Shown here in pieces: positions 6,075 to 61,313 of a stretch of 64,000 nucleotides of DNA. The position numbers were made by a program, and so were the translations under genes. Every line of letters starts with the position of its first letter. Positions within the stretch are counted from its first letter, which is position 1. The notes under the pieces are model-generated. The model did not search any database. It was given only the letters and a program-made list of their open reading frames with translations, and was not told the DNA's origin. Origin of the DNA: Candidatus Peregrinibacteria bacterium (GTDB taxonomy: Bacteria > Patescibacteriota > Gracilibacteria > UBA1369 > LOWO2-01-FULL-3); the NCBI GenBank assembly GCA_018654255.1, contig JABILX010000003.1, positions 13,030 to 77,029 of the forward strand. The letters run 5' to 3'.

Positions 6075-7559
6075 ATGAAACTAAACGCAACAAAAATTCC
6101 AATTCGCGTTGGAAAAAAATACATCGCCGTTCTAAATGAAAAACGCGCACACTTCCTCGACCTCCACGCAGGCGATCGTGTAATCCTCAAAAAAAGCAGA
6201 GTCCCTTCCATTCGTGCAATTCTAGAAATAACAGATAACAGCGAACTCAAAGAAACAGAAATTGGACTATACGAAGAAACTTGGGAAAAACTCAAAGTCG
6301 ACAATTACGGTGAAGACGTAGAAATTGGAATCGCAAAAAAACCAATCTCAACCACATACATCAAAGAAAAATTAAACGGCAAACCCCTCGACGCAAAAAA
6401 GATCAACGAAATCATAAAAGACGTCGTAAATGACGATCTATCTGACATCGAAGTCTCATACTTTGTATCTGGATGCTATGTTCACGGACTCTCAGACAAA
6501 GAAACCGCAGACCTCACCCGAGCAATCGTAAAAAACGGCTCACAAATCAAATTCGGAAACCGCATCGTCGCTGACAAACATTGTATCGGTGGAGTTCCAG
6601 GGAATCGAACCACAATGATCATCATCCCAATCATCACAGCAGCAGGAATCGTTATGCCAAAAACTTCATCAAGAGCAATCACAAGCCCATCAGGAACAGC
6701 AGACACAATGGAAGTTCTCGCAAACATAACCAACGACGCACCAAAACTCAAAAAGATCGCTCAAAAAGCCGGAGGATTCATAACTTGGGGCGGTGGAGTC
6801 GACCTCGCATCAGCAGACGACAAAATGATCAAAGTCCGCCATCCCCTATCTCTAGACCCTCAAGGAATGCTTCTCGCATCAATCATGGCAAAAAAATTCT
6901 CAGTCTCTTCAAATCACGTTTTGATAGACATTCCTGTAGGACCTCAAGTCAAAGTTAAAACCAAGAAAGAAGGAAAAATCCTCAAAAAACGATTCGAAAC
7001 TCTCGGTAAATATCTCGGAATGAAAATCAAAGTAATTTTCAGCAACGGCGACCAACCAATCGGAAACGGAATCGGCCCCTCTCTCGAAGCAATGGACGTC
7101 CTGAAAACTCTAAAAAACGAACCAGACGCACCACAAGAACTCAGAGAAAAGTCTATAATGATGGCAGGCCTACTCCTCGAATTATGTGGCAAAGCAAGAA
7201 AAACCAGAGGAAAAGCAATGGCACGCCGCTTACTTGATTCAGGCAAAGCATATGAACAAATGATGAAAATCATCAAAGCCCAAGGAGCAAAACGAACCAA
7301 GCTCCGACCAGGCAAATTCTCAAAAATCATAAAAGCAGGCAAAGCAGGCCGCATCACAGGAATCAACAATAAACTAATCGCACACATCGCAAGAACAGCA
7401 GGCGCTCCAAAAGACGCAGAAGCTGGCGTATATCTCCACAAAAAAATAGGAGCAACGGTCACAAAAGGAGAACCACTCTTCACCATCTACGCAGACATCG
7501 AAGAACGTATCGGTTACACATCTCAATACCCACTCAACAAAGCCTACACAATCAAATAA
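6075..7559 (+). CDS. AMP phosphorylase / thymidine phosphorylase family (archaeal-type, with N-terminal extension)
   Basis: 494 aa with the pyrimidine-nucleoside phosphorylase core (DKHCIGGVPGNRTT, TSSRAITSPSGTADTMEVL). It has the ~90-aa N-terminal domain typical of AMP phosphorylases and sits next to an eIF-2B-family isomerase. Confidence 0.75.
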   Translation: MKLNATKIPIRVGKKYIAVLNEKRAHFLDLHAGDRVILKKSRVPSIRAILEITDNSELKETEIGLYEETWEKLKVDNYGEDVEIGIAKKPISTTYIKEKLNGKPLDAKKINEIIKDVVNDDLSDIEVSYFVSGCYVHGLSDKETADLTRAIVKNGSQIKFGNRIVADKHCIGGVPGNRTTMIIIPIITAAGIVMPKTSSRAITSPSGTADTMEVLANITNDAPKLKKIAQKAGGFITWGGGVDLASADDKMIKVRHPLSLDPQGMLLASIMAKKFSVSSNHVLIDIPVGPQVKVKTKKEGKILKKRFETLGKYLGMKIKVIFSNGDQPIGNGIGPSLEAMDVLKTLKNEPDAPQELREKSIMMAGLLLELCGKARKTRGKAMARRLLDSGKAYEQMMKIIKAQGAKRTKLRPGKFSKIIKAGKAGRITGINNKLIAHIARTAGAPKDAEAGVYLHKKIGATVTKGEPLFTIYADIEERIGYTSQYPLNKAYTIK

Positions 7560-48755: not shown

Positions 48756-48953
48756 ATGGAAGGTATCATCAAAAAGCTGAACGAAAAAGGCTTTGGATTC
48801 ATCACTCCGGACGGAGAGGATAAGGACGTTTTCTTTCACAGAAACGACCTTGTAGACGCTGAATTCGACAACCTGAACGAGGGTGACAGAGTCACTTTTG
48901 AAAAGGAGGATTCTGAAAAGGGTCCAAAAGCAGTAGGAGTTACACTCGTTTAA
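48756..48953 (+). CDS. cspA: cold-shock protein (CspA family)
   Basis: KGFGFI (RNP1) and VFFH (RNP2) in a 65-aa protein with a ~100-nt leader. Confidence 0.9.
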   Translation: MEGIIKKLNEKGFGFITPDGEDKDVFFHRNDLVDAEFDNLNEGDRVTFEKEDSEKGPKAVGVTLV

Positions 48954-48978: not shown

Positions 48979-49018
48979 AGGTCATTTGAATACTAGTTAT
49001 TTAAATGGCCTTTTTTTT
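48979..49018 (+). terminator. intrinsic terminator of cspA
   Basis: AGGTCATTTGAAT-actagtt-ATTTAAATGGCCT forms a 13-bp stem with two G-T pairs, followed by T8. Confidence 0.75.
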
Positions 49019-49022
49019 GACA

Positions 49023-49169
49023 AAAAAATACCCTCATGAGAGATTAGAGGAATACAACGAACTTGAAAGACAAGCAAGAGACAACGGGGTCGGTTTATGG
49101 GCCGAAGGTGTATGTGACGACTTCTCACCACCACCAAAACCTCAACGGTCTCAACACCAGAAGAAATAA
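49023..49169 (+). pseudogene. orphan 3' fragment of a thermonuclease gene
   Basis: In frame it reads KKYPHERLEEYNELERQARDNGVGLWAEGVCDDFSPPPKP...*. Over 119 nt it is 104/119 identical to 59764-59882, the 3' end of the intact nuclease gene. There is no upstream coding part. Confidence 0.8.
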
Positions 49170-49274: not shown

Positions 49275-49610
49275 CTAAGCCTTCAACGCAACATCCCGCA
49301 AAAAACTCGACACTGAAGAATAACCCAACCGAGCCGCCTTTTTCTCAATCGCCTTCTTTTCCTCAACCGCAAGCCTAAACCTAATAATCTCTTTTGTTTT
49401 TTTCTGATAATTCTTCTCAGCTATGATTAACTCTGGCAAATCAATCAACAAGGCCGGAATATCCTCAGCCAAAAACGGTTGAGATATAGCAGCGGCTGGA
49501 CACTCGAAATAGACAACATCCTCCCCCTCATCCTTGTACGAAGAACTAATCGAATAAGGATATTTCTTATTATTAAAAGTTATTAAATGTTTCGTCTTTT
49601 TCTTATTCAT
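49275..49610 (-). CDS. antitoxin-like protein with C-terminal ribbon-helix-helix
   Basis: The C-terminus RFRLAVEEKKAIEKKAARLGYSSVSSFLRDVALKA is CopG/RHH-like. It lies immediately downstream of the hicA-like gene. Confidence 0.55.
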   Translation of the reverse strand: MNKKKTKHLITFNNKKYPYSISSSYKDEGEDVVYFECPAAAISQPFLAEDIPALLIDLPELIIAEKNYQKKTKEIIRFRLAVEEKKAIEKKAARLGYSSVSSFLRDVALKA

Positions 49611-49622
49611 AGAAATTCATTT

Positions 49623-49805
49623 TTAATAATTTTGAACGGGAATCGAGACCTCAACGTTACGAAACATATGCTTGAACTTCACATGACTCCCCTTCGCCTC
49701 TACCCTTTCAAACCCAAACCACATCAATATCCGACAAACCTCCCAAACCTTAAGACTCCCCGGATTCTCCAAAAACTTCTTTATCAACTTTTCTTTTCGA
49801 CTCAA
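49623..49805 (-). CDS. hicA: HicA-family toxin (mRNA interferase)
   Basis: 60 aa with a HicA-like pattern in FGFERVEAKGSHVKFKH. Confidence 0.7.
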   Translation of the reverse strand: MSRKEKLIKKFLENPGSLKVWEVCRILMWFGFERVEAKGSHVKFKHMFRNVEVSIPVQNY

Positions 49806-49860: not shown

Positions 49861-50742
49861 TCAAAGCGGACTTCTAACGCCACGAAGCCCCCTCTTCGTC
49901 ACCCGCGTATAAAGCTGAGTCGTCTTCACATCCCGATGCCCCAAAAGCTCCTGCACATAACGCAAATCCACCCCATCCTCGAGAAGATGTGTCGCAAAAC
50001 TATGCCTCAACGAATGAAACGACACATCACCCCTAATCCCCAAACGAACTAAACACTGCGAAAAAACCTTCTGCGCCGATCGACTAGTCAACCTGCCACC
50101 CCTATTACTCGGAAAAACATAATCCCGCCCAGCACTCCCATCAACAAACGCCCAAAGCTCCCGCGAAATCCTATCCGGCAACAACGTCACCCGATCTTTG
50201 CCGCCCTTCCCACAACGCACATTGATAAACCCATTCCCAAAATCCAAATCCCCCACCCGAAGACTCACAACTTCACTCACCCGCAGCCCCGCCCCGTATG
50301 CAACCGAAATCAACAAACGATGTTTTTGATTCTCAATCCCCCTAATCACCCGACGAACCTCAGTTCGATCGAGCACCCTCGGCAACCGAAGCGACCGTTT
50401 GGCACATTTGATGCTTTTCCCCACATCCCTCTCCAAAATCTCCCTATAGAAAAACTTCACCGCATTCAACGCCAGATTCACAGTCTGCGGCGCAGCCCCC
50501 TCATCAATTTTTTTCAGAAGAAATCTCTTCACGACCGCATCCCCAGTATGCTCCACATTCACGGCAAATTGATCTGGATCAAGCTCAAACAAAAACTCCA
50601 AATACTCCCGCAAATAACCTGTATAACTCTTCAAAGTCCTCGGACTATAATTACGAATCTTCAGCTCAGTCTCCACCACACCCACACACATATAAATGAT
50701 TGTATACTTCGGCGCACCCGGACTAATGTGAAAGATATTCAT
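49861..50742 (-). CDS. IntI-like tyrosine recombinase lacking the integron-integrase-specific insertion
   Basis: Landmarks are LRVGDLDFGNGFINVRCGKGGKDR, HSLRHSFATHLL, LLGHRDVKTTQLYTRV and the C-terminal GLRGVRSPL. Only 58 residues lie between GKGGKDR and HSLRH. An alternative start is MCVG at 50691. Confidence 0.8.
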   Translation of the reverse strand: MNIFHISPGAPKYTIIYMCVGVVETELKIRNYSPRTLKSYTGYLREYLEFLFELDPDQFAVNVEHTGDAVVKRFLLKKIDEGAAPQTVNLALNAVKFFYREILERDVGKSIKCAKRSLRLPRVLDRTEVRRVIRGIENQKHRLLISVAYGAGLRVSEVVSLRVGDLDFGNGFINVRCGKGGKDRVTLLPDRISRELWAFVDGSAGRDYVFPSNRGGRLTSRSAQKVFSQCLVRLGIRGDVSFHSLRHSFATHLLEDGVDLRYVQELLGHRDVKTTQLYTRVTKRGLRGVRSPL

Positions 50743-50865
50743 GATACTCTTACCCTACCCCACCAACCTTACAAAAAACTTAAATAAAACTAAATTTTTT
50801 ATTAAATCCACACCACCAATCCAACTCCACTTCCCGCATCCCCCCATTTTTGCTAGCATAAGTTC

Positions 50866-50885
50866 AGATAAACACTAGTTAGCTG
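50866..50885 (+). other. attI-like junction (first crossover box)
   Basis: CAGATAAACACTA-GTTAGCTG resembles the L'-R' arms of the downstream sites. No left-arm partner is visible upstream. Confidence 0.45.
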
Positions 50886-50951
50886 AAATAACAATAAATT
50901 CCCATGCTCCTTCGGAGCATATATAATAACCAAAACTAATTTTCTTTAATT

Positions 50952-51704
50952 ATGAATCAAGTAACAATTTTTTCCATTGTAATACTAATAGCGATCTTTC
51001 TTTTATATCGCTACGTTGAACGTCGCCTGAATCAAATTGAAAACAGAATTGCTCATAAGGACGTGGTTCCGGAAAACAATGAAGCAAAAAATTCTTTAAC
51101 GGCTGTTGAAAAAAAATTGAGCGCAATCCAAAACTTGTGCTCGCCGCTTTTTTTGTTAAATATTTTCGACACATGGAGCAGTCTTACAACCGATGACTCA
51201 ACACAATTAGAGCTATTGGTTAAAGATTTTGAAGAAGCGGAAGAAACAAGAGTGTCGAAAATCAAAGGGGTAAATGATACCGAAAAAGAGGAACTCCAAG
51301 AATATGAGGAAAAGCATCCTAATAAAAAAGAGTTTGAACCTAGTCATAGCCTGAAATGCGACATACTCGCGGCGAGCACAGCAATAGTAATCAGACAAAC
51401 ACTGCATGAGCAACTAGAAGCCGTTAAAGAACTGTTTTTTGATGTCTTAAATGGGAAAATCTCCATTAAAGAAGCACGTCAAAAATCAATAAAAATCGCT
51501 TCAAGAAAAGACATTCATGATCTGGAAAACACTTTGTATTCACCAGAACTTTATGCCAATGATATTGAAAAGGATAAGGACATTCACCCTGAAATCAAAA
51601 AACAGTTCAAAGAATTTTTTGCAATGTATCAAAAACGTTGGGGCGACAATAAGTGGAAAGATCGCTTGAAATGGTACAAGGAAATGGAAAATTACGAAAA
51701 TTAG
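50952..51704 (+). CDS. cassette 1 ORF, hypothetical (N-terminal TM, coiled region)
   Basis: 250-aa ORF that starts 73 nt after the junction at 50879. It is AT-rich and lacks the host A/C bias. Confidence 0.6.
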   Translation: MNQVTIFSIVILIAIFLLYRYVERRLNQIENRIAHKDVVPENNEAKNSLTAVEKKLSAIQNLCSPLFLLNIFDTWSSLTTDDSTQLELLVKDFEEAEETRVSKIKGVNDTEKEELQEYEEKHPNKKEFEPSHSLKCDILAASTAIVIRQTLHEQLEAVKELFFDVLNGKISIKEARQKSIKIASRKDIHDLENTLYSPELYANDIEKDKDIHPEIKKQFKEFFAMYQKRWGDNKWKDRLKWYKEMENYEN

Positions 51705-51748
51705 TTTTGGTTATTATTCGCCTTCGGCGAGGGAATTTATTGTTACAT

Positions 51749-51879
51749 CAGCTAACAATGAATAACTGGTTCACTCACTCCGCTACGCTTCGTTCGTTCT
51801 CCCAAATTTGGCGGCGGTATGTCGCTCCGCTCCAAATTATACCGCCACCAAACTTCAGTTATTCATGGACGTTATACGC
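51749..51879 (+). repeat. attC-like site 1
   Basis: CAGCTAAC-a-ATGAATAACTG ... TTTGGCGGCGGTAT/ATACCGCCACCAAA ... CAGTTATTCAT-ggac-GTTATACGC. Its R'' is the exact complement of GTTAGCTG at 50878. Confidence 0.6.
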
Positions 51880-52027
51880 AATTCAAAAAATATTTTTCTT
51901 TTAATAAGGAATTTTGACAGGCTTTTTAAAAGGGGAATAAATTTGATTTTTAATTTATAATGAGGGGGATAGCGGTATTTTCTCCGCTTCTCTCCGAAAA
52001 TGATTTATAATTTAACCAAAAATTATT

Positions 52028-53248
52028 ATGGGATTTGAAACACCAACACCGCCTGAAGCACACGATACTTCCAATGCTATTGAAAAACCAAAACCGATTC
52101 CAGAACCAGCAGAGAAATCTGTTGACGATCAGAGACAAGAAACAAAAATGTCTTCTCCTGATTTAAGTAATCAATCTCCAAAACAAGAACAGGAAGATCA
52201 AACCAAAATAGATCAAATTAGAGAACAGTTAGATTTAGAAAATGAAAATTTAGTGACTAAACAGGATATTTTAAACCCTGAAGAAGCAAAAGTGAGACTG
52301 TTTGCGCTGATGGATGAAATACAGGAAACAAGTGCCACTCCAACCAATAAGGCAAAAACAATAGAAGAAATAACGCAGCTACTTAGAGAAATTTCAAAAA
52401 CAAAGGATCCTAAATCTTATAAATTTTTTAGAGAAGATGGTCACTTTAAACAACTAAAAATTGTCAGTAAATATTTGATTGAAAATTCTCTTGATCGTGA
52501 TTTGCACGAAAGAGTGCTCACTTATCTTGGTAGTGTAGGCATTGAAACAACCCAAGATGAACGAGCGCAAATTATTGATTATTTCAGAGAGAAAGATGAC
52601 GAAAAAAGACGCGACACTTTCATGTCTTATGCACAAAATGGACTTTTAACATTAAAGTCTGCAATTGAGCGTGGAGTGCTAAAAGAATCTTCGTCAACAC
52701 CAGGTGACTTTTCATCATTAGACGACCTTCAAGAATTTTCTTTAGAAGAACATGGAAATGTAAGAGGTTATGAGCTTAGTCCACAAGACATCAATGATGA
52801 ATTATTTTATGGAAGAAATAGTTTCTTTGGTGTTGTTTTAGAAAGAGGTGGAGAAGAAATTGATAGAGCGGGCAAACTACCAAAAGCAGAAGTTCAAAAT
52901 AGATTAAGGAATTCAATGATTTTTATTATGAAATCAGAAAAAGCCGATATCTCTAGGCGCACAGATAATGCCAATAAAGAAGATATCGTGAGAAGAGACA
53001 TAAAACCAGAAGAAATTGATTATTTAATTGTTGATCATTCAAATATCACAGCTGCACAAGAGGCTTTTGGTCATTTACCTTGCAGGATAATTTCTGCTGA
53101 TACTGTTGAAGCTAAACTTCAAAATTTCTTTGAAGAACCTTATAAATTACCAGATTATAAAGGTGAAGTAGAAAAAATAGCAAAAAATGAAGGTGAGGTT
53201 TGGTGTCATATCGCCAGACTTCCAGTAGATACGTATCCTGAAGAATAA
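52028..53248 (+). CDS. cassette 2 ORF, hypothetical
   Basis: 406-aa ORF with no motif recognised. It is followed by a perfect 17-bp hairpin, GTTTTGGATTTTGGGCA/TGCCCAAAATCCAAAAC (53252-53302). Confidence 0.6.
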   Translation: MGFETPTPPEAHDTSNAIEKPKPIPEPAEKSVDDQRQETKMSSPDLSNQSPKQEQEDQTKIDQIREQLDLENENLVTKQDILNPEEAKVRLFALMDEIQETSATPTNKAKTIEEITQLLREISKTKDPKSYKFFREDGHFKQLKIVSKYLIENSLDRDLHERVLTYLGSVGIETTQDERAQIIDYFREKDDEKRRDTFMSYAQNGLLTLKSAIERGVLKESSSTPGDFSSLDDLQEFSLEEHGNVRGYELSPQDINDELFYGRNSFFGVVLERGGEEIDRAGKLPKAEVQNRLRNSMIFIMKSEKADISRRTDNANKEDIVRRDIKPEEIDYLIVDHSNITAAQEAFGHLPCRIISADTVEAKLQNFFEEPYKLPDYKGEVEKIAKNEGEVWCHIARLPVDTYPEE

Positions 53249-53426
53249 GGAGTTTTGGATTTTGGGCATTCACCTCTAACCCCTCTGCCCAAAATCCAAA
53301 ACAAAAAACAAATTTATAATTATTGTATGAAAAGTCTGTCAAAATGAAATTGAATGAAAAATATTTTTTGAACTTCTCGCTATCGCTCGACCACATTGCA
53401 TTCTTGCTCCACTGCGTTCCGCTCGG

Positions 53427-53545
53427 GGCGTATAACACAGTATATCTGGCTCGCTCGTGCCCTTGCTCGACCCATATTTGCCAAAAACTCATTGATTTTA
53501 AAAGGAATTTTGGCAAACATCAGATATACTGAAACGTTGTACGCC
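53427..53545 (+). repeat. attC-like site 2
   Basis: GGCGTATAAC-a-CAGTATATCTG ... TTTGCCAAAA/TTTTGGCAAA ... CAGATATACTG-aaac-GTTGTACGCC. Its R'' GCGTATAAC is the exact complement of GTTATACGC at 51871. Confidence 0.6.
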
Positions 53546-53943
53546 ATAACAAAAAGCCCCAAGTTCCAAATAGCATTTTCAGTAGCAGATAGAGTTTAAA
53601 GTAGAAATTAACACATCACTGAGTCAACCTCCTGTAAATCAAGTCACCTTAACTTACAATCTGTCTGTCACTTCTCTCTAAACACCAAGCCCATTTAGAA
53701 CAAGTTGACAGTGACCATAAACCTTTGAGAAAGCTTACAACCAGACTTATTATTGCCATCCAAAACTTGAGGCACAACTAGCGACAAATAATTCCAATTT
53801 ATCACCACTTGCGCCCCGAGTTTCGCGTATTTTTTAAAGATCACTACAATCATAGTACCACATTTATAAAACAAAATCAAGTATTTTCAGACAAAAAATC
53901 CTTAATGTTTGGGCTTTTTGTTACACGCTCACTTCGTTCGCTA

Positions 53944-54132
53944 GCGCACAACAAAAGTATATATGGTTCACTCACGTTTTGCGATTCTTAAATGAAGGCA
54001 AATCCAAAACTCCCCTACTTTTAACCAATCCTTTACATCTCCACCGTTCTCCCAACTTGTTGCGAGGTGATCCCGACAAGTCGGGACCATTGTACCTCAC
54101 CCCAAGTTCACATATACTTTGGCCGTTGTGTG
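53944..54132 (+). repeat. attC-like site 3
   Basis: GCGCACAAC-a-AAAGTATATATG ... CATATACTTT-ggcc-GTTGTGTG. Its R'' matches the complement of the preceding R' (GCGTACAAC) at 8/9. It shares GGTTCACTCAC and CGTTCTCCCA blocks with site 1. Confidence 0.55.
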
Positions 54133-54190
54133 ATATAATGAAAAAAACAAAGTTTATATTTTTGATAATTTATCCATAACCAAATAAAAA

Positions 54191-54616
54191 ATGGAACAAA
54201 ATCAACCAACACAAACCAAAAAACCTCCGCTCGGCATAAAAATAATGGCCGGAATATTACTCCTGATAGGTCTCGTTATAGGATTCGATGTGTTGTCTTC
54301 AATTAGCGCAATACTGTTTGGTGGATGGATGTTAGTCACAGGCATCGTCGCATTAATTCTCTTCATTTACACAGAAAAAACCAGCATCAACATGTTCAAA
54401 ATGAAATCGAGCAACAAAATAAACTACTACATTGCCCTCTTTCTGGATATGCTATATATATGCTCAATGCCATTAAGGGAAACCCTTATACTTACACACG
54501 AAACACCATCAGCAGATACATTTCTAGTAGCAATAATATTAACGGTAATTGTGTTCGCAGTCCTTGCACTACCATTCTTTTTCATTACTAGAAAGCACAA
54601 AGATCTATACGTATAG
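54191..54616 (+). CDS. cassette 4 ORF, hypothetical 4-TM membrane protein
   Basis: 141-aa hydrophobic ORF that starts 65 nt after the junction at 54126. Confidence 0.55.
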   Translation: MEQNQPTQTKKPPLGIKIMAGILLLIGLVIGFDVLSSISAILFGGWMLVTGIVALILFIYTEKTSINMFKMKSSNKINYYIALFLDMLYICSMPLRETLILTHETPSADTFLVAIILTVIVFAVLALPFFFITRKHKDLYV

Positions 54617-54668
54617 AATAAATTATCAAAAATATTAAGCCTGCTTCGCAGCCTTATTTTTCATTACA

Positions 54669-54792
54669 GCACACAACAGAGTATGTGCGGCTCGCTTCCG
54701 CAAGCGGAGCACTCACCCATATTGACCAGTGATACGCTTTCAGCGTATTTTATCACTGGTCAACATCGCATACGATCCGACCGTTGTGTGCC
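54669..54792 (+). repeat. attC-like site 4
   Basis: CACACAAC-ag-AGTATGTGCG ... TTGACCAGTGATA/TATCACTGGTCAA ... CGCATAC-gatccgacc-GTTGTGTGCC. Its R'' is the exact complement of GTTGTGTG at 54125. Confidence 0.6.
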
Positions 54793-54861
54793 ATTTCAGG
54801 TTTGACAAATCCCATAATAAACATATATAAATCTACTCCTATTCTATAAACAAGATTAAAC

Positions 54862-55068
54862 ATGACAAATACACCCGATCAAGAAACAGAGATAACCATA
54901 GATGAGAGAGTCGCTGTCCAAGTCGACTTGGAATTAACAACAAGAGCTATAAAATGTCAAACAAGACTAACCCCAGACAGTAAAACAACCATAGTCAAGG
55001 TAAGCACATCTGTAGAAGATCGTGTAAGACAACTGCTATCAAGCCTAGGATTCAAAATAACTAAATAA
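54862..55068 (+). CDS. cassette 5 ORF, hypothetical small protein
   Basis: 68-aa ORF that starts 78 nt after the junction at 54784. Confidence 0.45.
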   Translation: MTNTPDQETEITIDERVAVQVDLELTTRAIKCQTRLTPDSKTTIVKVSTSVEDRVRQLLSSLGFKITK

Positions 55069-55169
55069 TTATGAATGAAATTTTAGAAGGGGTTTCTTTC
55101 GAGCCACTATCACCTCGGCAAAAGCCAGCTTGTATAAATAACAGCGCTGAACACAAATGCGACAATCCT

Positions 55170-55314
55170 GCCACACAAGAAGCAGTACACGGAATTAATA
55201 GAGTTAGATGTTGTGATGAAGATCCCTGCAAGATAAGAGCAGCAACCCTCGCAAAAATAAGTAAAGAATTGCAATAATTTTGCAACATCGTACACACACC
55301 GACCGTTGCGCACC
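55170..55314 (+). repeat. attC-like site 5 (right arm clear, left arm degenerate)
   Basis: The right arm CATCGTACACACACCGACC-GTTGCGCACC matches the family. The candidate left box GCCACACAAG matches the complement of the preceding R' (GGCACACAAC) at 8/10. Confidence 0.4.
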
Positions 55315-55387
55315 ATAATCCCGAGAAATTATTTGACATAACCCCATTATTCACGTATAGTTGCCCCTATTTTTTTAAACCCTATTT

Positions 55388-55630
55388 ATGTCAGAATCAG
55401 ATAAGATTCTTGTTGTTACTGAGAAAGGCGCTATACCTCTTCCAGAAACTTCAGCACTCATCCCTAGGATAGAAGCAATCATTGATGATCCAGAAACCAA
55501 AGCTATTAAACGAGATGAAATTGGTGACATAATCGTAAATACAGGAACCCTGCTGCTAGCTATTAAGCCCCAACAACTTGAACTCAGGGCAGAAGAAGTC
55601 CTAAAAGAGATATTAGGCGACAGAGACTAG
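55388..55630 (+). CDS. cassette 6 ORF, hypothetical small protein
   Basis: 80-aa ORF that starts 82 nt after the junction at 55306. Confidence 0.45.
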   Translation: MSESDKILVVTEKGAIPLPETSALIPRIEAIIDDPETKAIKRDEIGDIIVNTGTLLLAIKPQQLELRAEEVLKEILGDRD

Positions 55631-55636
55631 GCGGCT

Positions 55637-55725
55637 TATTCACCCATGTTTGACGAGGGTAAGTCTTTCGGCGTATTTTACCGCTGTCAAACATCACACA
55701 ACAGATGTATGTGCGGCTCGTTTCC
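55637..55725 (+). repeat. rearranged attC-like fragment (central block followed by a left arm)
   Basis: TTCACCCATGTTTGAC...GTCAAACATC is homologous to the centre of site 4. It is followed directly by CACACAACAGATGTATGTGCGGCTCG, near-identical to the left arm of site 4. No right arm follows. Confidence 0.45.
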
Positions 55726-55768
55726 TTCGTTAGCAGAAATATCGTTTACAACACTTAACAATAAAAAC

Positions 55769-56185
55769 ATGAACAAACCAACTTCACATTTTGAAGAAGG
55801 AGGTCCAAGCCAAGAACCACAAAGCACCTCCGAAAGAGAAAAACAAGAAAGAGTAGTAGAAATTCTTAGGTTAGTAGAAAAAATTAATGAATCAGGTGCG
55901 CCTTTGCCTTTTCCTGGCATTCCTCAAGAAACTTATTTAAAAATGAAGGCAGATGAAAATGAGGCTCCTGGTTATACTACGCCAATAGACGAAATAATAT
56001 TTAGATGTCAAAGAGAGGGTATAAAAGTAATCACAGGAAGACATCCAGGATCAGGCGGCGTCTTTATTTTACCAGCAGGCAGTGATGATTGTGACATGGA
56101 CAGCATTCTCCCCCGCCAATTAGCAGTTGAGGCTGTTGAAAATGAACATCTTGCAAGATTGATACAGCTAAAAACTAAAAATTGA
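55769..56185 (+). CDS. hypothetical protein
   Basis: ORF from MNKPTSHFEEGG. The upstream part of track ORF 55646.. overlies the attC-like fragment and is not counted. Confidence 0.45.
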   Translation: MNKPTSHFEEGGPSQEPQSTSEREKQERVVEILRLVEKINESGAPLPFPGIPQETYLKMKADENEAPGYTTPIDEIIFRCQREGIKVITGRHPGSGGVFILPAGSDDCDMDSILPRQLAVEAVENEHLARLIQLKTKN

Positions 56186-56210
56186 TTGATTTTTTTAACA
56201 AAATAAAAAC

Positions 56211-56501
56211 ATGGAAAAATACTTTATCTACACCATTACATTTCTATACAGCATTGGAGGACTAATAACGTTCGCTGGATTTTTTCCAACAATGAAGGAC
56301 CTATGGAAAGGAAAACCAAGTGCAAATATTAATACCTACATCATATGGGGAGCAACTACCTTCATCACATCACTATATGCAATTTTTGTCGTAAAAGACT
56401 TGCTTTTCAGCTTGGTAATTAACCTTCAATTAGTAGCATGCGTGATTGTTTTGATCTTGAGACTAAGGCTAAAAGTAAAAAAGTCCAAAAAGACTCCATA
56501 A
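56211..56501 (+). CDS. hypothetical 3-TM membrane protein (PQ-loop/SemiSWEET-like shape)
   Basis: 96 aa with three hydrophobic helices and an FFPTMKDLWKGK loop. The similarity to PQ-loop proteins is only impressionistic. Confidence 0.35.
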   Translation: MEKYFIYTITFLYSIGGLITFAGFFPTMKDLWKGKPSANINTYIIWGATTFITSLYAIFVVKDLLFSLVINLQLVACVIVLILRLRLKVKKSKKTP

Positions 56502-56526
56502 AACCTCATTCCATCTACACCACAAC

Positions 56527-57936
56527 TCACGCCGCCAGAACCCCCTGAGGACCAGACAACACCTTCTCAAACTTTCCAACGTGTTCCAAGAAGTTCTGAG
56601 ACGGAACATTCCACGTCCCAAAGTGCTGTCGATAAAAAGGAATGTCTCCAGCCACTTTGTTACCTTTAGCCTCCAAAAAGAAACATACATCAACTGCCTC
56701 AGACCCAAGAGCCTGCAAAGCCGGAATAATCTTTCTTAAAGTAGTTCCCGTCACCGCATCATTTTCACAAACCAAAATCCTTTTAGCTTCAGTTACAGGC
56801 TTGAAATTCATGCCAACATTTCTCCAGACAGGTTCTCTGTTTTCCCATTCTCGATCTTTTTGATGCCACTCAATATACCTAACATTTCCTCCCATTAATT
56901 CACAAAGCGCAGCCATAGAACATCCAGCATTCATAACACCAACGATCAAGTCATATTGACTAATCAACTCCCCAGCAGCATTAATCATATCAGGCCGAAT
57001 CTCAGTATTCATACTCTCTAGAGGCAATCCTACCTGCCCAGCATAATCCAAAAAGGACCCAAGATTCCCGCGCAATCTATCCTTCACCAAACCATCAACA
57101 AAAGAATCCTTCAAAACTGTCTCAAAATCATCTCCATCACAATCACCATCATGATATTTTAAATAACGAGAAATATAAATCTCCATTTCCTCTTCCGTAA
57201 AAGTACGATAAATCTCGGGAGGTATATGGTAATCATATTCATTCGAATAAACAAACCCTCTGCCATATCTCTTAAGCTCATCATCCAGACCCAACATATT
57301 AAAACCATCTGCAATACCATAAACATTCTTGGAATTTACAAATAATTCATTGATAAATAAAAGGAATTCTTTTAATTCAATTTGCTGTTGACCATCAAGA
57401 GGTTCACCAGATTCATACGAATATTCTTTTCTTACATGATTAACTAATTTTTTAGCCAACTCCATTGAAATATCGCGCCTCGTTTCAGGAGAGTAAGTGG
57501 AATCAAGATACCTATTTCCACATTTTTTAAGACTATCATCAGGAAACCTTTCAGCCAACATATCTCCATCGACAACAACACCCAACAAATCTGCTCTACA
57601 AACAGCACGTACCTCATCAGCCAAATCAAAATCTCCAAGGGCAAGTATCCTATCAACTTCCTCCCCAACTCCCTCCACAATCCCCTCAACGAGATAACGG
57701 TCTCTCAATGCATAAATCTCAACCATCATTTTCTCCAGTTTTGTTTGAAAGCCAGGGATAAAACGTTTTGAAAAAGCAGCAATTTCCCCATCATTTCTAA
57801 TCATGAGTTTAGAAGCCCTGTCATCCTCTCCAAGCATCCAAAAAGCCTCAACATTACCGGTACTTCGAATCTGATGAAGCACGTCACCTGGTTGAAAATC
57901 AATGGTCTCCGAATTTGTAGGCGGTCGATTTCTCAT
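56527..57936 (-). CDS. protein with C-terminal phosphoribosyltransferase-like domain and unknown ~300-aa N-terminal region
   Basis: The PRTase PRPP-loop-like motif RILVCENDAVTGTTLRKI lies about 65 aa from the C-terminus, preceded by YDLIVGVMNAGCSMAA. Confidence 0.5.
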   Translation of the reverse strand: MRNRPPTNSETIDFQPGDVLHQIRSTGNVEAFWMLGEDDRASKLMIRNDGEIAAFSKRFIPGFQTKLEKMMVEIYALRDRYLVEGIVEGVGEEVDRILALGDFDLADEVRAVCRADLLGVVVDGDMLAERFPDDSLKKCGNRYLDSTYSPETRRDISMELAKKLVNHVRKEYSYESGEPLDGQQQIELKEFLLFINELFVNSKNVYGIADGFNMLGLDDELKRYGRGFVYSNEYDYHIPPEIYRTFTEEEMEIYISRYLKYHDGDCDGDDFETVLKDSFVDGLVKDRLRGNLGSFLDYAGQVGLPLESMNTEIRPDMINAAGELISQYDLIVGVMNAGCSMAALCELMGGNVRYIEWHQKDREWENREPVWRNVGMNFKPVTEAKRILVCENDAVTGTTLRKIIPALQALGSEAVDVCFFLEAKGNKVAGDIPFYRQHFGTWNVPSQNFLEHVGKFEKVLSGPQGVLAA

Positions 57937-58045
57937 GAATTTTAATAAGCAAAAAACAAAGAGAAGATATTGTACCAGAAACCCTCAAAAAAGCAACCCC
58001 TTTGAAAAACTCCGCTCAAATTTGCGAGGGATCTCCCTTTGACAT

Positions 58046-58393
58046 ATGATAACACCAATGAACACATTAGAATTCCTCAGACAGTTTCGTTTCAGTGGTT
58101 ACGCTATCTTTGATTTAGTAGCAGCCTTACTTGGTATTTATTTGATATCACCTCTCCTATCCAAACTCTTTTTGAAAATCAGAATTGATATTCCAAAACT
58201 CAACTGGCTATATTTGACCTTACCAATAGGAATACTCGTTCATCTCTTGGTTGGAGAAATGACCCCCATGACTGTAGATTTCCTGAACATACACGACCAT
58301 TACATTTTGAAAATACTGACGATCGGATTATTAGTCCTAGGATTGAGAAACATAAAAATAAGGAAAAAACACAAAGCCACTAACCAACGTTGA
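58046..58393 (+). CDS. hypothetical membrane protein
   Basis: 115 aa with three to four hydrophobic segments. Confidence 0.4.
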   Translation: MITPMNTLEFLRQFRFSGYAIFDLVAALLGIYLISPLLSKLFLKIRIDIPKLNWLYLTLPIGILVHLLVGEMTPMTVDFLNIHDHYILKILTIGLLVLGLRNIKIRKKHKATNQR

Positions 58394-58457
58394 CCAATAA
58401 CATACTCCAACATATGATGTGGTCATCAACTTTTTAATAATCTAAACCAAAACCATC

Positions 58458-59033
58458 ATGCCAACTTTAGAAGGATCAAAAACCGAAAAAAATCTATTAA
58501 AATCTTTCGCTGGAGAATCTCAAGCCAGAATGCGCTATGACTATTTTGCAAAACAAGCAAAAAAAGAAGGGTTAGAACAAATCTCAGCTATTTTTGAAGA
58601 AACAGCCCTCAACGAAAAAGAACACGCAAAAAGATTCTTTAAATTTTTGGAAGGCAGACCTGTTGAAATCACAGCCACCTACCCTGCTGGAAAAATAGGA
58701 ACAAGCCTTGAAAACCTAAAAGCCTCAGCCGAAGGAGAAAACGAAGAATGGACAGAACTATACCCAGAATTCGCCAAAATAGCAGAAGAAGAAGGCTTTC
58801 AAGAAATAGCAGATACTTTCACAAAAATAGCAGAAGTTGAAAAAGCTCACGAAGAAAGATACAAAAAGCTATACAAAAACCTGGAAAAAGGAAACGTTTT
58901 CACCAGCAACGACACCATAACTTGGAAATGCAGAAATTGCGGATACTTACACCAAGGAACTTCTGCTCCAGAAATATGCCCAGCTTGCCTACACCCACAA
59001 GCACACTTCCAAATCAAAGAAAATAATTACTAA
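58458..59033 (+). CDS. rbr: rubrerythrin
   Basis: Ferritin-like diiron motifs ([36 protein letters not shown]) plus the C-terminal rubredoxin CRNCGY...CPAC. Confidence 0.9.
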
Positions 59034-59080
59034 GCCTGGTTGGCTTAAATATTAGAGCATACATAAAAAAGAAAAATTGA

Positions 59081-59170
59081 ATTTCACCCACTCTCCCAAG
59101 TCTGACAGTGGCACGTCGCTTCGCTCAATTGTACCACCGCCAGACTTCGTACATACTCCGACCGTTAGCC
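59081..59170 (+). repeat. orphan attC-like half site (central block plus right arm)
   Basis: ATTTCACCCA..., hairpin AAGTCTGACAGTGGCAC/GTACCACCGCCAGACTT, then CGTACATAC-tccgacc-GTTAGCC. No matching left arm is seen nearby. Confidence 0.45.
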
Positions 59171-59253
59171 AAAATATCTCTCAAATTCACCTTCACATTT
59201 GACAAAAAAGAGTAGTTAGAACTAAAATATTCTCCTTTTAACCAATCTAAATT

Positions 59254-59913
59254 ATGGCAGGACTAAAAGAAGTAGCACTACTCAGCATTGCATTAGCACT
59301 AGCACCCAGTTGCGCCCACCACGACATAAACAACGGAAGAAATCACCCCCCCAAAACAAAAACTACTGAAAGAGTAGAAGAATCCCGACTTGCACTACAA
59401 AAAGTACTCACCGAAGAACATCCAGATCATCCTCCTGCCTACGAAGCTGAGAAACAAGAAGTTCCTGTACTAAAAGTTGTAGACGGAGACACTGTTGATG
59501 TTTATTACAAGGGGAAAAAAGAAAGAATTAGAATAATTGGAATAAACACCCCTGAAACAGTCCATCCATCAAAACCAGTAGAATGCTTTGGGCGAGAAGC
59601 GTCGAATAAAATGAAAGAATTGCTAGAAGGTCAAAAAATTATTATCAGAACAGGACAAGGCTCAGGGGACAGAGGTAAATATGGTCGCCTTTTAAGGTAT
59701 ATAGAGCTTGGTGGTGAAGACATCGGTGCTAAAATGATCGAAGAAGGATACGCCTTTGCCTATAAAAAATATCCTCATGAAAGGTTAGAGGAATACACTA
59801 AACTTGAAAGACAAGCGAGAGAAAACGGAGTCGGATTATGGGCTGAAGGAGTATGTGACGATTTCGTCCCACCACCAAAACCAGAATGGCATCCAGTTCC
59901 TGAAAAAAAATAA
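59254..59913 (+). CDS. thermonuclease (SNase-family) lipoprotein
   Basis: Signal peptide plus lipobox (ALAPSC). SNase blocks are VVDGDTVDV, RIRIIGINTPE, ECFGREAS and YGRLLRYI. Confidence 0.85.
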   Translation: MAGLKEVALLSIALALAPSCAHHDINNGRNHPPKTKTTERVEESRLALQKVLTEEHPDHPPAYEAEKQEVPVLKVVDGDTVDVYYKGKKERIRIIGINTPETVHPSKPVECFGREASNKMKELLEGQKIIIRTGQGSGDRGKYGRLLRYIELGGEDIGAKMIEEGYAFAYKKYPHERLEEYTKLERQARENGVGLWAEGVCDDFVPPPKPEWHPVPEKK

Positions 59914-60857: not shown

Positions 60858-61313
60858 ATGTTAGAACCATCAAGAATTTCACAAATATCAGCCATCCAGG
60901 CTCCAATAAGTCTACCAACTCACGTATCTCAAGTAGAAGAAATGGATGTACCCAATTCATACCTACCAAGAATCCTAGAATTAGCACAAGAAGCTATAGA
61001 GAAAAGTGGCAAACAACGAATAGATGGAAGCATATTATTCGACGTTATGTGCAATTTTGGTTTCAGCCAATGGCTAGAACTTCAGGAAAGAATGATCTTA
61101 ATGAGCCTAGAAACTAGCGAAGAAATAGACGAACAATTGGGCAGAGAAATCAAAAGAATAGCCCTAAACTCAGTCTTCCCACAATTGACTAAACAAGTCT
61201 TAGACCTTCAAATGACAACACAACCCGCATCTCAAGAAAGAGAAGTTTTTACAATCATACAAGACACACAGACACAGCTACCTGAAGACCTGCTACAAGC
61301 GGCTTCAATGTAA
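60858..61313 (+). CDS. hypothetical protein
   Basis: 151-aa ORF with no motif. Confidence 0.4.
   Translation: MLEPSRISQISAIQAPISLPTHVSQVEEMDVPNSYLPRILELAQEAIEKSGKQRIDGSILFDVMCNFGFSQWLELQERMILMSLETSEEIDEQLGREIKRIALNSVFPQLTKQVLDLQMTTQPASQEREVFTIIQDTQTQLPEDLLQAASM

Follow-up and report, generated by a model that had tools for sequence, protein, structure and literature searches.

The DNA analyzed here, a 64-kb stretch hereafter called the window, is chromosomal sequence of a marine Candidatus Peregrinibacteria, which belongs to the candidate phyla radiation (CPR), and carries a tyrosine recombinase gene beside an array of small gene cassettes. The assignment to this group follows the names under which an identical DnaK is recorded. 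The recombinase, a protein of 293 amino acids (aa), is encoded on the minus strand at 49861–50742 and was characterized by the Pfam domains PF00589 and PF13495, NCBIfam models, alignment with Protein Data Bank (PDB) structures, protein alignment, a neighbor-joining (NJ) tree, and Foldseek. The array occupies the plus strand from 50879 to about 59170 and comprises four complete structured sites together with degenerate ones out to 59176. At its head, on the plus strand at 50860–50889, lies an attI-like primary site, recognized from its sequence and from homologous sites in relatives. An initial annotation of this DNA had proposed an integron-like array that arose by insertion at G|TT (the vertical line marks the crossover) beside an IntI-like, possibly Xer-like, recombinase. 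The window was compared with other assemblies and metagenome loci, which are designated by L numbers (L002, L007, L055, and so on).

Every complete site in the window has the order R''-L''...L'-R': a left box ending in AAC, a spacer of 1–2 nt, an 11-nt arm, a branched interior, the complementary arm, a spacer of 4–5 nt, and a right box starting with GTT. The L'' and L' arms are 11-nt perfect or near-perfect inverted repeats, and the sites are 118–191 nt long, which agrees with the imperfect palindromes of 120–190 bp and the same layout described in the initial annotation. The boxes quoted there were all present at their coordinates. The right boxes, located by their first G, are GTTAGCTG (50878), GTTATACGC (51871), GTTGTACGCC (53536), GTTGTGTG (54125), GTTGTGTGCC (54783), and GTTGCGCACC (55305), and the left boxes are CAGCTAAC (51749), GCGTATAAC (53428), GCGCACAAC (53944), and CACACAAC (54670). 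Two details had to be revised. Five units had each been said to end in such a palindrome; four end in complete sites, whereas the fifth ends in the L'-R' half only (55275–55317, with the G at 55305). Nor does the array end at 55314, since further sites lie at 55615–55743 and 59042–59176.

Sites were scored with two covariance models, R1, built from eight sites, and R3, built solely from sites of unrelated metagenome loci. The cassettes, delimited from the sequence and the list of open reading frames (ORFs), all lie on the plus strand. Cassette 1 (50879–51871; 250-aa ORF at 50952–51704) has a start and an end that form a 74-nt inverted repeat (50878–50951 and 51690–51756), and it closes with site 1 (51745–51883), in which a short and a long hairpin stand between the R''-L'' and L'-R' arms (R1, 99 bits; R3, 66.2 bits, E = 2e−12; supported by folds). 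Cassette 2 (51872–53536; 406-aa ORF at 52028–53248) ends in site 2 (53425–53548; R1, 84.8 bits; R3, 75.6 bits), the junction that holds an additional cassette in L002 and L003. Cassette 3 (53537–54125), of 589 bp, is without an ORF, appears twice, head to tail, in several assemblies, and ends in site 3 (53941–54137; R1, 86.7 bits; R3, 33.4 bits; fold). Cassette 4 (54126–54783) contains a 141-aa ORF (54191–54616), whose largely hydrophobic sequence suggests a membrane protein, and ends in site 4 (54666–54795; R1, 119.9 bits; R3, 56.2 bits; folds). The ORFs start 66–157 nt past each junction. Within the window, all R1 matches fell inside the array and on its plus strand. R3 recovered the four complete sites with E-values of 1e−14 to 9e−5, and elsewhere in the 64 kb it gave only one match, with an E-value of 0.5.

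Excision and re-insertion of cassettes between the G and the TT would leave each cassette starting with the TT-proximal half of a right box and ending with the left box that matches it, so that a left box should complement the right box of the preceding junction rather than its own. The initial annotation had described such chaining, and permutation and random-draw tests upheld it. In the window, the left boxes matched the previous junction at 22 of 24 variable positions versus 17 of 24 for their own right box, a result reached by 6 of 1,680 permutations; the left box of site 4 fits both equally and is non-discriminating. Over 22 consecutive site pairs from 12 loci, the left box matched the previous right box at a mean of 4.95 of 6 variable positions (6/6 in 11 pairs), compared with 3.5/6 for its own right box and 3.02/6 for a background drawn from other loci, and none of 20,000 random draws reached the observed sum. 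One of the 6/6 pairs spans a 5.8-kb cassette.

Differences between closely related assemblies fall exactly at the predicted crossover. In L002 and L003, whose recombinase is identical, an extra cassette of ~840 bp (cassette X), with a 192-aa ORF and its own site, lies between the G and the TT of site 2: the junction reads ...gaaacG|TTGTACGCC in the window and ...gaaacG|TTATACGAC–cassette X–ctaaatG|TTGTACGCC in L002 and L003. The left box of cassette X, CGTATAAC, is the complement of the cassette's own first bases. The inverted partner of its left end lies ~100 nt inside its right end, and GTT alone is shared at the two junctions. A miniature inverted-repeat transposable element (MITE) or another element with terminal inverted repeats was rejected for cassette X, which has neither bounding inverted repeats nor a target-site duplication beyond the shared GTT. 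The same result bears on cassette 1, for which an inverted-repeat or MITE-like origin had been a concern. The first cassettes of L008 and L055 also show long complementarity between start and end, as the circular-cassette model predicts, and cassette X lacks terminal inverted repeats; these two observations answer the concern.

In L006, L138, L141, and L142, cassette 3 (53537–54125) is joined end to start, with the junction ...ctttggccG|TTGTACGCC, and the sequence downstream of this junction is otherwise 100% identical over 6.6 kb. This junction is either a tandem duplication or the trace, in the assembly graph, of an excised circle; on either reading, two cassette sites must have exchanged at G|TT. 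In several contigs the end lies within ~50 nt of a junction, and many contigs break at the array, as expected of a locus that varies within populations. Over greater distances the contents of the array are almost entirely replaced. In L007 (recombinase 84% identical) and in L008 and L009 (66%), the flanks are kept, with hrcA-grpE-dnaK on one side and an S-layer homology (SLH)/beta-propeller gene and serS on the other (DnaK 93–94% and the SLH/beta-propeller protein 70–90% identical), and the small co-oriented genes of the array differ from those of the window, the exceptions being a PQ-loop-like gene in L007 and a rubrerythrin gene in L008. Cassette polymorphism, which the initial annotation had proposed as a check, was found among assemblies both as the presence or absence of a cassette exactly at G|TT and as different cassettes between conserved flanks. 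A cold-shock gene lies between dnaK and the recombinase module in the window (48756–48953) and in L007, and a 94%-identical copy is located inside the L008 array (7213–7410); a gene of housekeeping type thus seems to have been exchanged between the flank and the array.

Cassette sites of this kind recur beside related recombinases. A metagenome scan with an alignment of these recombinases yielded 80 loci, which together with L054–L056 make 83 further loci. In these, R1 gave 41 hits, 39 of them on the strand opposite the recombinase gene. Of the 19 loci whose recombinase showed an identity of 43% or more and whose upstream sequence reached 500 nt or more, 15 had at least one upstream site, and one locus had eight. 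The right-box motif was counted 45 times on the array strand upstream versus 5 on the opposite strand; downstream sequence totaling 151 kb contained 24 copies. R1 gave no hit in 550 kb of true-integron and unrelated loci. These loci, which served as negative and positive controls for the site models, came from a scan of GTDB genomes with a single protein; that scan returned only true integron integrases and unrelated recombinases and no close relative, its peptide patterns being over-specific. A scan of IMG/VR with the left-half consensus gave three matches, none confirmed by the site model, and phage-borne sites are thus unsupported.

Across loci the sites measure 90–200 nt and have a branched interior with the conserved motifs GGCTCGC... 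and CCCATATTTG...CAAACATC. Their R boxes resemble those of canonical attC: they have the form nnnYAAC/GTTRnnn, and the classic GCCTAAC/GTTAGGC is common among the CPR sites. L055, whose recombinase is 53% identical, contains a primary site followed by a DUF4145 cassette, an empty cassette, a cassette with a ribbon-helix-helix (RHH)/YafQ toxin-antitoxin pair, and a Na/Ca-exchanger cassette, and its sites carry the same conserved motifs as those of the window. In L060 (454–5849, minus strand), a single 5.8-kb cassette with boxes chained 6/6 encodes a helix-turn-helix regulator, a C5 cytosine methylase, an HpaII-type restriction endonuclease, Vsr, and a 924-aa AAA/SMC-like ATPase; it is in effect a defense island in the form of one cassette. 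The cargo across loci includes restriction-modification and toxin-antitoxin systems (HicAB, RHH/YafQ), deaminases, nucleoside-salvage enzymes, rubrerythrin, and nuclease.

When folded as single-stranded DNA, all four complete window sites were more stable than their shuffled sequences on both strands (z of −2.7 to −7.6; 0–2 of 200 shuffles as good). In an alignment of 46 sites, pairing reached 96.7% in the L helix, where 10 of 11 pairs showed compensatory double changes, and 96.5% in the long hairpin, where 14 of 15 pairs did; controls with slid partners paired at 29–42%. The R helix paired with its own partner at only 77.5%, as the chaining of left boxes to preceding junctions predicts. In 44 of the 46 sites one A alone forms the left spacer, and the right spacer has 3–5 nt, most often AAAC. 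One-sided changes that would create G-T or G-U pairs were almost absent from the helices, so that the covariation is Watson-Crick only, which points to pairing in DNA rather than RNA; an RNA-structure reading of the sites was rejected on this ground. In addition, an Rfam scan of the window found only a tRNA and no RNA family on the sites, and no T-tract follows the sites in the window.

These results bear on the view that the sites are passive intergenic palindromes, that is, MITE-like or repetitive extragenic palindromic (REP) repeats, or hairpins of DNA or RNA that serve as terminators or as signals for RNA processing. The sites are indeed intergenic, placed after ORFs, and strongly structured, and the ends of cassette 1 form the 74-nt inverted repeat; however, passive repeats would be hard to reconcile with strain differences lying precisely at G|TT, with an inserted cassette that has no terminal inverted repeats and duplicates nothing beyond GTT, with left boxes that fit the previous junction rather than their own right box, or with sites tied to one recombinase clade and placed opposite its gene in 39 of 41 hits. 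The Watson-Crick-only variation with almost no G-U, and the lack of T-tracts and Rfam families noted above, also speak against it. We regard this view as very improbable.

The recombinase has a complete catalytic set (R154, K179, H243, R246, H269, and Y278 in the protein alignment). Its top NCBIfam match is the integron integrase TIGR02249, with 214.6 bits, under the cutoff of 265; the Xer models also stayed below their cutoffs (XerA 205 versus 220, XerC 187 versus 335, XerD 176 versus 330). The nearest solved relative by sequence is VchIntIA (2A3V; E = 5e−44), which is also the top Foldseek match of the predicted structure (predicted local distance difference test score of 88.8; E = 1e−16), and XerA is the second-best match by sequence and structure alike. 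However, residues 192–221 of the recombinase (30 aa) align opposite residues 173–245 of VchIntIA (73 aa), and the 31-aa and 11-aa insertions of five true IntI proteins are missing from it and from all eight aligned CPR relatives. These insertions are the additional domain that, in the 2A3V work, is reported to hold the extrahelical bases. The enzyme is therefore not an IntI in the strict sense.

In an NJ tree, a modest distance method applied here with thin outgroup sampling, the CPR clade, three more divergent site-bearing recombinases, and the IntI group were joined at 100% bootstrap, with XerA and Escherichia coli XerC and XerD outside; IntI was monophyletic at 100% and the CPR clade was recovered at 71%. 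Smyshlyaev et al. (PMC8138268) place these CPR proteins in a Xer-related subgroup, “Cand,” and the recombinase belongs to this CPR clade, which is described as Xer-related and is probably sister to IntI. The three divergent recombinases (L082, L090, and L091) are 33–41% identical to that of the window and have model-positive upstream sites (35–68 bits), and their position in the tree is near the base of the CPR plus IntI clade; sites of this family may therefore also occur outside the CPR clade sampled here. The recombinase of L006 is only 94% identical even though its cassettes are identical to those of the window, and the divergence lies entirely at the C-terminal end (L006 10001–11530 corresponds to the window left of 49936). 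The downstream flank of L006 also differs, with a 147-aa ORF in place of the HicA-like and NikA-like genes, which implies that recombination had a breakpoint within the 3' end of the gene for the recombinase.

Comparison with integrons shows a shared plan executed with different parts. As in integrons, the recombinase gene points away from the array and adjoins a primary site, the cassettes are co-oriented and end in R''-L''...L'-R' palindromes with AAC/GTT at the crossover, exchange at G|TT produces chained boxes and long complementarity between cassette start and end, and some cassettes are without ORFs. The cargo is likewise accessory, with toxin-antitoxin and defense genes (HicAB, RHH/YafQ, HpaII restriction-modification with Vsr), and IntI is the nearest relative of the CPR enzyme. 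In contrast, the CPR enzyme lacks the IntI additional domain and scores below the TIGR02249 cutoff, the site spacers are 1 and 4 nt instead of the 5 and 5 nt of canonical attC, the interior is branched and Y-shaped instead of a simple hairpin, extrahelical bases are not conserved, and the primary site is a simple dif-like palindrome. A surrogate canonical attC model (R2), built from 20 Xanthomonadales attCs, found attCs in six loci on which it had not been trained, from several lineages including Neptunomonas and Desulfobacterales (20–76 bits), whereas neither the window nor 12 CPR loci gave a match at E ≤ 1. Because the canonical attC model and the CPR site model miss each other's sites, the CPR sites constitute a distinct family.

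A canonical integron, with a true IntI, attI, and attC callable by IntegronFinder, can accordingly be given hardly any weight. The top rank of TIGR02249 and of VchIntIA, by sequence and structure, agrees with such an assignment, as do the geometry and the GCCTAAC/GTTAGGC form of the R boxes; nevertheless, the score of 214.6 against a cutoff of 265 and the absence of both insertions from the protein and its CPR relatives largely refute it as regards the integrase, and the silence of the surrogate attC model, the 1/4-nt spacing, and the lack of conserved extrahelical bases argue against it as regards the sites.

The primary site, AAGTTCAGATAA-ACACTAG-TTAGCTGAAAT, is an 11-7-11 imperfect palindrome with arms matched at 9 of 11 positions and resembles dif; it has the form of a Xer/dif core site (a 28–30-bp palindrome with 11-bp arms and a 6–8-bp center). 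Its position beside a divergently oriented recombinase gene, with co-oriented cassettes following, is that of an attI site. From the sequence, the crossover would be between G50878 and T50879, at the edge of the right arm. Consistent with this position, the primary sites of the window and L007 are identical up to GTT and diverge beyond it. Homologous primary sites were found in eight further loci, among them L008, L051, L053, L055, L059, L063, and L073, with the consensus TTCGCATAAA-N4-5-A-G|TTRnnnGAAAT.

A dif-like site next to a Xer-related enzyme raises the alternative of a housekeeping Xer/dif system, in which the recombinase would be the dimer resolvase, the primary site the chromosomal dif, and the cassettes tandem hitchhikers like the integrative mobile elements exploiting Xer (IMEX), as CTX and TLC are at Vibrio dif1. 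We consider this alternative unlikely. It draws on the placement of these proteins in the “Cand” subgroup (PMC8138268), a score close to the XerA cutoff (205 versus 220), the missing IntI insertions, the 11-7-11 geometry of the primary site, and the presence of a single such recombinase per locus, with no second one in the 64-kb window. On the other side, the platform of L055 lies ~4 kb from dnaA-rpmH-rnpA-yidD, close to the likely origin, and the cumulative GC skew across the window is monotonic with no turn at the array, although gene orientation confounds this measure. A location at the terminus, typical of Xer/dif, is thus not indicated by the window skew or by L055, in a sample composed of incomplete genomes. 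Furthermore, the tree groups the clade with IntI and away from XerA and E. coli XerC and XerD at 100% bootstrap, and the gene-site-array order with fixed polarity in 15 of 19 loci fits the design of a platform, not occasional parasitism. The initial annotation had named a placement inside XerC/D together with a nearby dif-like site as a finding that would count against the integron-like reading: the tree does not give that placement, whereas a dif-like site does adjoin the gene. Mechanistically, the housekeeping alternative overlaps with a cassette platform and differs from it on what the platform is for; a dual role is possible, but the position near dnaA in L055, the skew of the window, and the constant design argue that the locus serves chiefly the array.

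The housekeeping alternative also draws on two features of known Xer systems: in streptococci the XerS gene adjoins its difSL site, and CTX phage integrates as a folded single strand. The IMEX elements at dif (CTX and TLC phages and the gonococcal island, which use XerCD) likewise combine a Xer-type enzyme that has no IntI domain with a dif-like duplex site and form tandem integrations. In both cases the partner site probably folds as a single strand, with a stem that restores a pair of arms for binding on either side of an imperfect center. They differ in that the CPR units are cassettes of 0.5–6 kb without replication or phage genes, each with the same conserved site family, and in that the enzyme gene is part of the CPR locus, which apparently is not at the terminus. 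The single-recombinase systems (archaeal XerA/dif, XerS/difSL, and XerH/difH) share one recombinase of ~270–290 aa and a palindromic core with 11-bp arms, and XerS likewise lies beside its site; however, they act at a single site, where they resolve chromosome dimers, and they lack a cassette array, and the CPR clade falls in the tree with IntI rather than with XerA. The pdif modules of Acinetobacter plasmids are gene modules bounded by Xer-type sites and shuffled between replicons. They are flanked by 28-bp duplex sites in opposite orientations and alternating order, whereas the CPR sites all have the same orientation, are long and folded, and lie beside a recombinase gene.

Taken together, these results make it likely that the locus is a chromosomal gene-cassette platform that works like an integron, with an enzyme and sites distinct from the canonical ones. 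The term “integron-like” is right, and “integron” in the strict sense is wrong, because the additional domain is absent, the site family is distinct from attC, and the primary site is dif-like. The proposal of the initial annotation is thus sustained in its account of insertion at G|TT, through the cassette polymorphism and the chained boxes, and is qualified in three respects: the recombinase is not a strict IntI, the sites are not canonical attC, and the primary site resembles dif.

Several observations weigh against this interpretation. The insertions through which IntI contacts the extrahelical bases of attC are missing from the recombinase, and its use of folded DNA is thus a prediction. 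Stable folding had been suggested as a check together with conserved extrahelical bases, and only the former was found: the L stems carry no conserved extrahelical base (46 sites, with no conserved bulge in the L helix), and the two strands fold about equally well, so that the choice of strand is not fixed by folding. The training set of R3 was chosen by R1 and the alignments were fitted to the structure; hence, the covariation and R3 tests are not fully independent. All cassette polymorphisms come from metagenome assemblies, and the end-to-start junction of cassette 3 was seen only in SPAdes assemblies of one project, where it may be a tandem duplication or an assembly loop derived from a circle. 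The distal sites (55275–55317, 55615–55743, and 59042–59176) are degenerate, and L007 and L008 hold just one or two intact sites each. Finally, a promoter scan of the window, part of a search for promoters and terminators, gave 26 promoter-like matches versus 29 expected, with no overall enrichment, and showed no convincing plus-strand promoter upstream of 50878, so that a common cassette promoter was not identified. The best promoter-like matches lie just inside cassettes (50899, 51914, 55333, and 59199), positions that are suggestive at most. Terminator-like matches, too, were no more numerous than chance would give.

For a cassette platform of this kind, we propose the following mechanism. 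The Xer-related CPR recombinase would recombine the double-stranded dif-like primary site with the structured sites at the cassette ends, exchanging strands between the G and TT of the conserved GTT. Cassettes would leave as circles with one reconstituted site and would re-enter at the primary site or at another cassette site. The cassette site, most likely as single-stranded DNA, would fold into a Y shape that consists of an R stem with AAC/GTT at its inner end, a conserved asymmetric loop (one A on one side and ~4 nt, usually AAAC, on the other), an L stem of 11–12 bp, and two hairpins, one short and GC-rich and the other long. By analogy with attC and the attP hairpin of CTX phage, the asymmetric loop would be the central region of the folded core site. 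The cleaved strand would then have ~5–6 nt between the arms and the other side only 2, which would permit one strand exchange, as at attC and the CTX hairpin, and the resulting junction would presumably be resolved by replication.

The part of the array beyond site 4 is less regular. Cassette 5 (54784–55317, plus strand; repeat families D2 and D7), with two 68-aa ORFs, ends in the half-site described above (R1, 13.8 bits). Cassette 6 (55306–55743, plus strand; repeat family D5), with an 80-aa ORF (55388–55630), ends in a rearranged site at 55615–55743 that R1 matched partially (24.9 bits). In this site a long hairpin (55636–55694) precedes R''-L'' (55697–55722; ACATCACACAAC-A-GATGTATGTGCGG), which is followed by R' at 55729 (GTTAGCAGAAAT, also given as GTTAGCAG). 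Its left box matches the start of cassette 4 (GTTGTGTGAT) at 11 of 12 positions. The arrangement probably arose by a deletion whose endpoints were two ACATC motifs of neighboring sites, the one closing a long hairpin and the other opening the left box of the following site.

The distal segment of 3.4 kb (55730–59176, plus strand; delimited by the ORF list, homology, and R1) contains five ORFs, encoding proteins of 138 aa, 96 aa (a homolog of a PQ-loop cassette gene of L008), 469 aa (minus strand), 115 aa, and 191 aa (rubrerythrin), and a terminal site (59042–59176; R1, 30.7 bits, E = 1e−4) with the R' GTTAGCCAAAAT (GTTAGCC) and the G at 59164. The 469-aa ORF (56527–57936, minus strand) has a weakly phosphoribosyltransferase-like C-terminal region and is the sole gene of the cassette region that opposes the polarity of the array. 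The terminal right box, GTTAGCCAAAATATC (59164–59178), recurs as the same 15 nt in the distant CPR genome L055 (2895–2881, minus strand), in both cases at the distal array end. It may represent the right arm that the primary site had before any cassette occupied it, although a chance match is possible given the shared right-box consensus. Beyond the terminal site, a marginal site-model match (61003–61056; 17.3 bits, E = 0.5), with the right-box-like ACGTTATGTGCAAT at 61044, falls inside an ORF (60860–61313); it is probably due to chance but could be a decayed junction.

Downstream of the recombinase gene and on the same minus strand are a HicA-like gene (49623–49805) and a NikA-like/RHH gene (49275–49610). 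Both neighbors are kept across the close clade of the recombinase, according to gene tables of relatives and tblastn, and the pair probably forms a toxin-antitoxin module that accompanies the platform. At the far side of the recombinase module, an ORF at 49005–49169 represents the truncated 3' end of a staphylococcal-nuclease-like gene, and an intact gene lies just past the terminal site (59254–59913); the nuclease gene is not present in the relatives L007 and L008. The two ends of the region share a 126-nt direct repeat (49023–49148 and 59764–59889; 85% identical), which may be the relic of a rearrangement that carried array-end material across the platform. An integrative island in the 3' end of the nuclease gene, which the repeat might suggest, was rejected as the main explanation, since the intact gene has the truncated copy upstream of it, identity between the repeats is only 85%, and the platform is kept in relatives without the nuclease.

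The integron concept has already been carried beyond its classical hosts by archaeal integrons, which are reportedly detected with standard IntI and attC models. Like the present loci, they come from metagenome-assembled genomes, and Ghaly et al. (2022; PMC9668308) present them as integrons; the CPR system, in contrast, lacks the IntI domain and gives no match to the canonical attC model. In a full-text literature search, whose coverage excludes subscription journals, no report was found of integrons or integron-like arrays in CPR bacteria (Patescibacteria). A 2021 review's list of integron-bearing phyla is without CPR/Patescibacteria (PMC8618304), and CPR bacteria are not mentioned in the IntegronFinder 2 paper. 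A 2026 study found that 97% of contigs with “integron-type” recombinases were without detectable attC and offered novel attC types as one explanation (PMC13323075). The platform described here would be invisible to current integron finders and may partly explain those contigs. We regard it as slightly more likely than not that it represents an undescribed class of integron that is widespread in CPR bacteria, with integrases that are sister to IntI but lack the additional domain and with Y-shaped folded sites and a dif-like primary site of its own.

The locus probably functions like an integron, yet it stands outside the integron family as currently defined. In the prevailing view, folded attC cannot recombine without the IntI-specific domain, and integrons have a single origin in a Xer-like ancestor. 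If our interpretation is true, the capture of cassettes through folded DNA either is older than the IntI domain, which would make this system an extant intermediate between Xer/dif and integrons, or has arisen twice; the enzyme may in addition serve as the Xer recombinase of the cell. An IntI-adjacent clade without the domain, beside arrays with recent gain, loss, and duplication at G|TT, makes both the origin of integrons and the minimal requirements for folded-DNA recombination testable. CPR bacteria have tiny, streamlined genomes, and gene flow among them is poorly understood. The locus would provide them with a dedicated, apparently widespread hotspot for the acquisition of accessory and defense genes.

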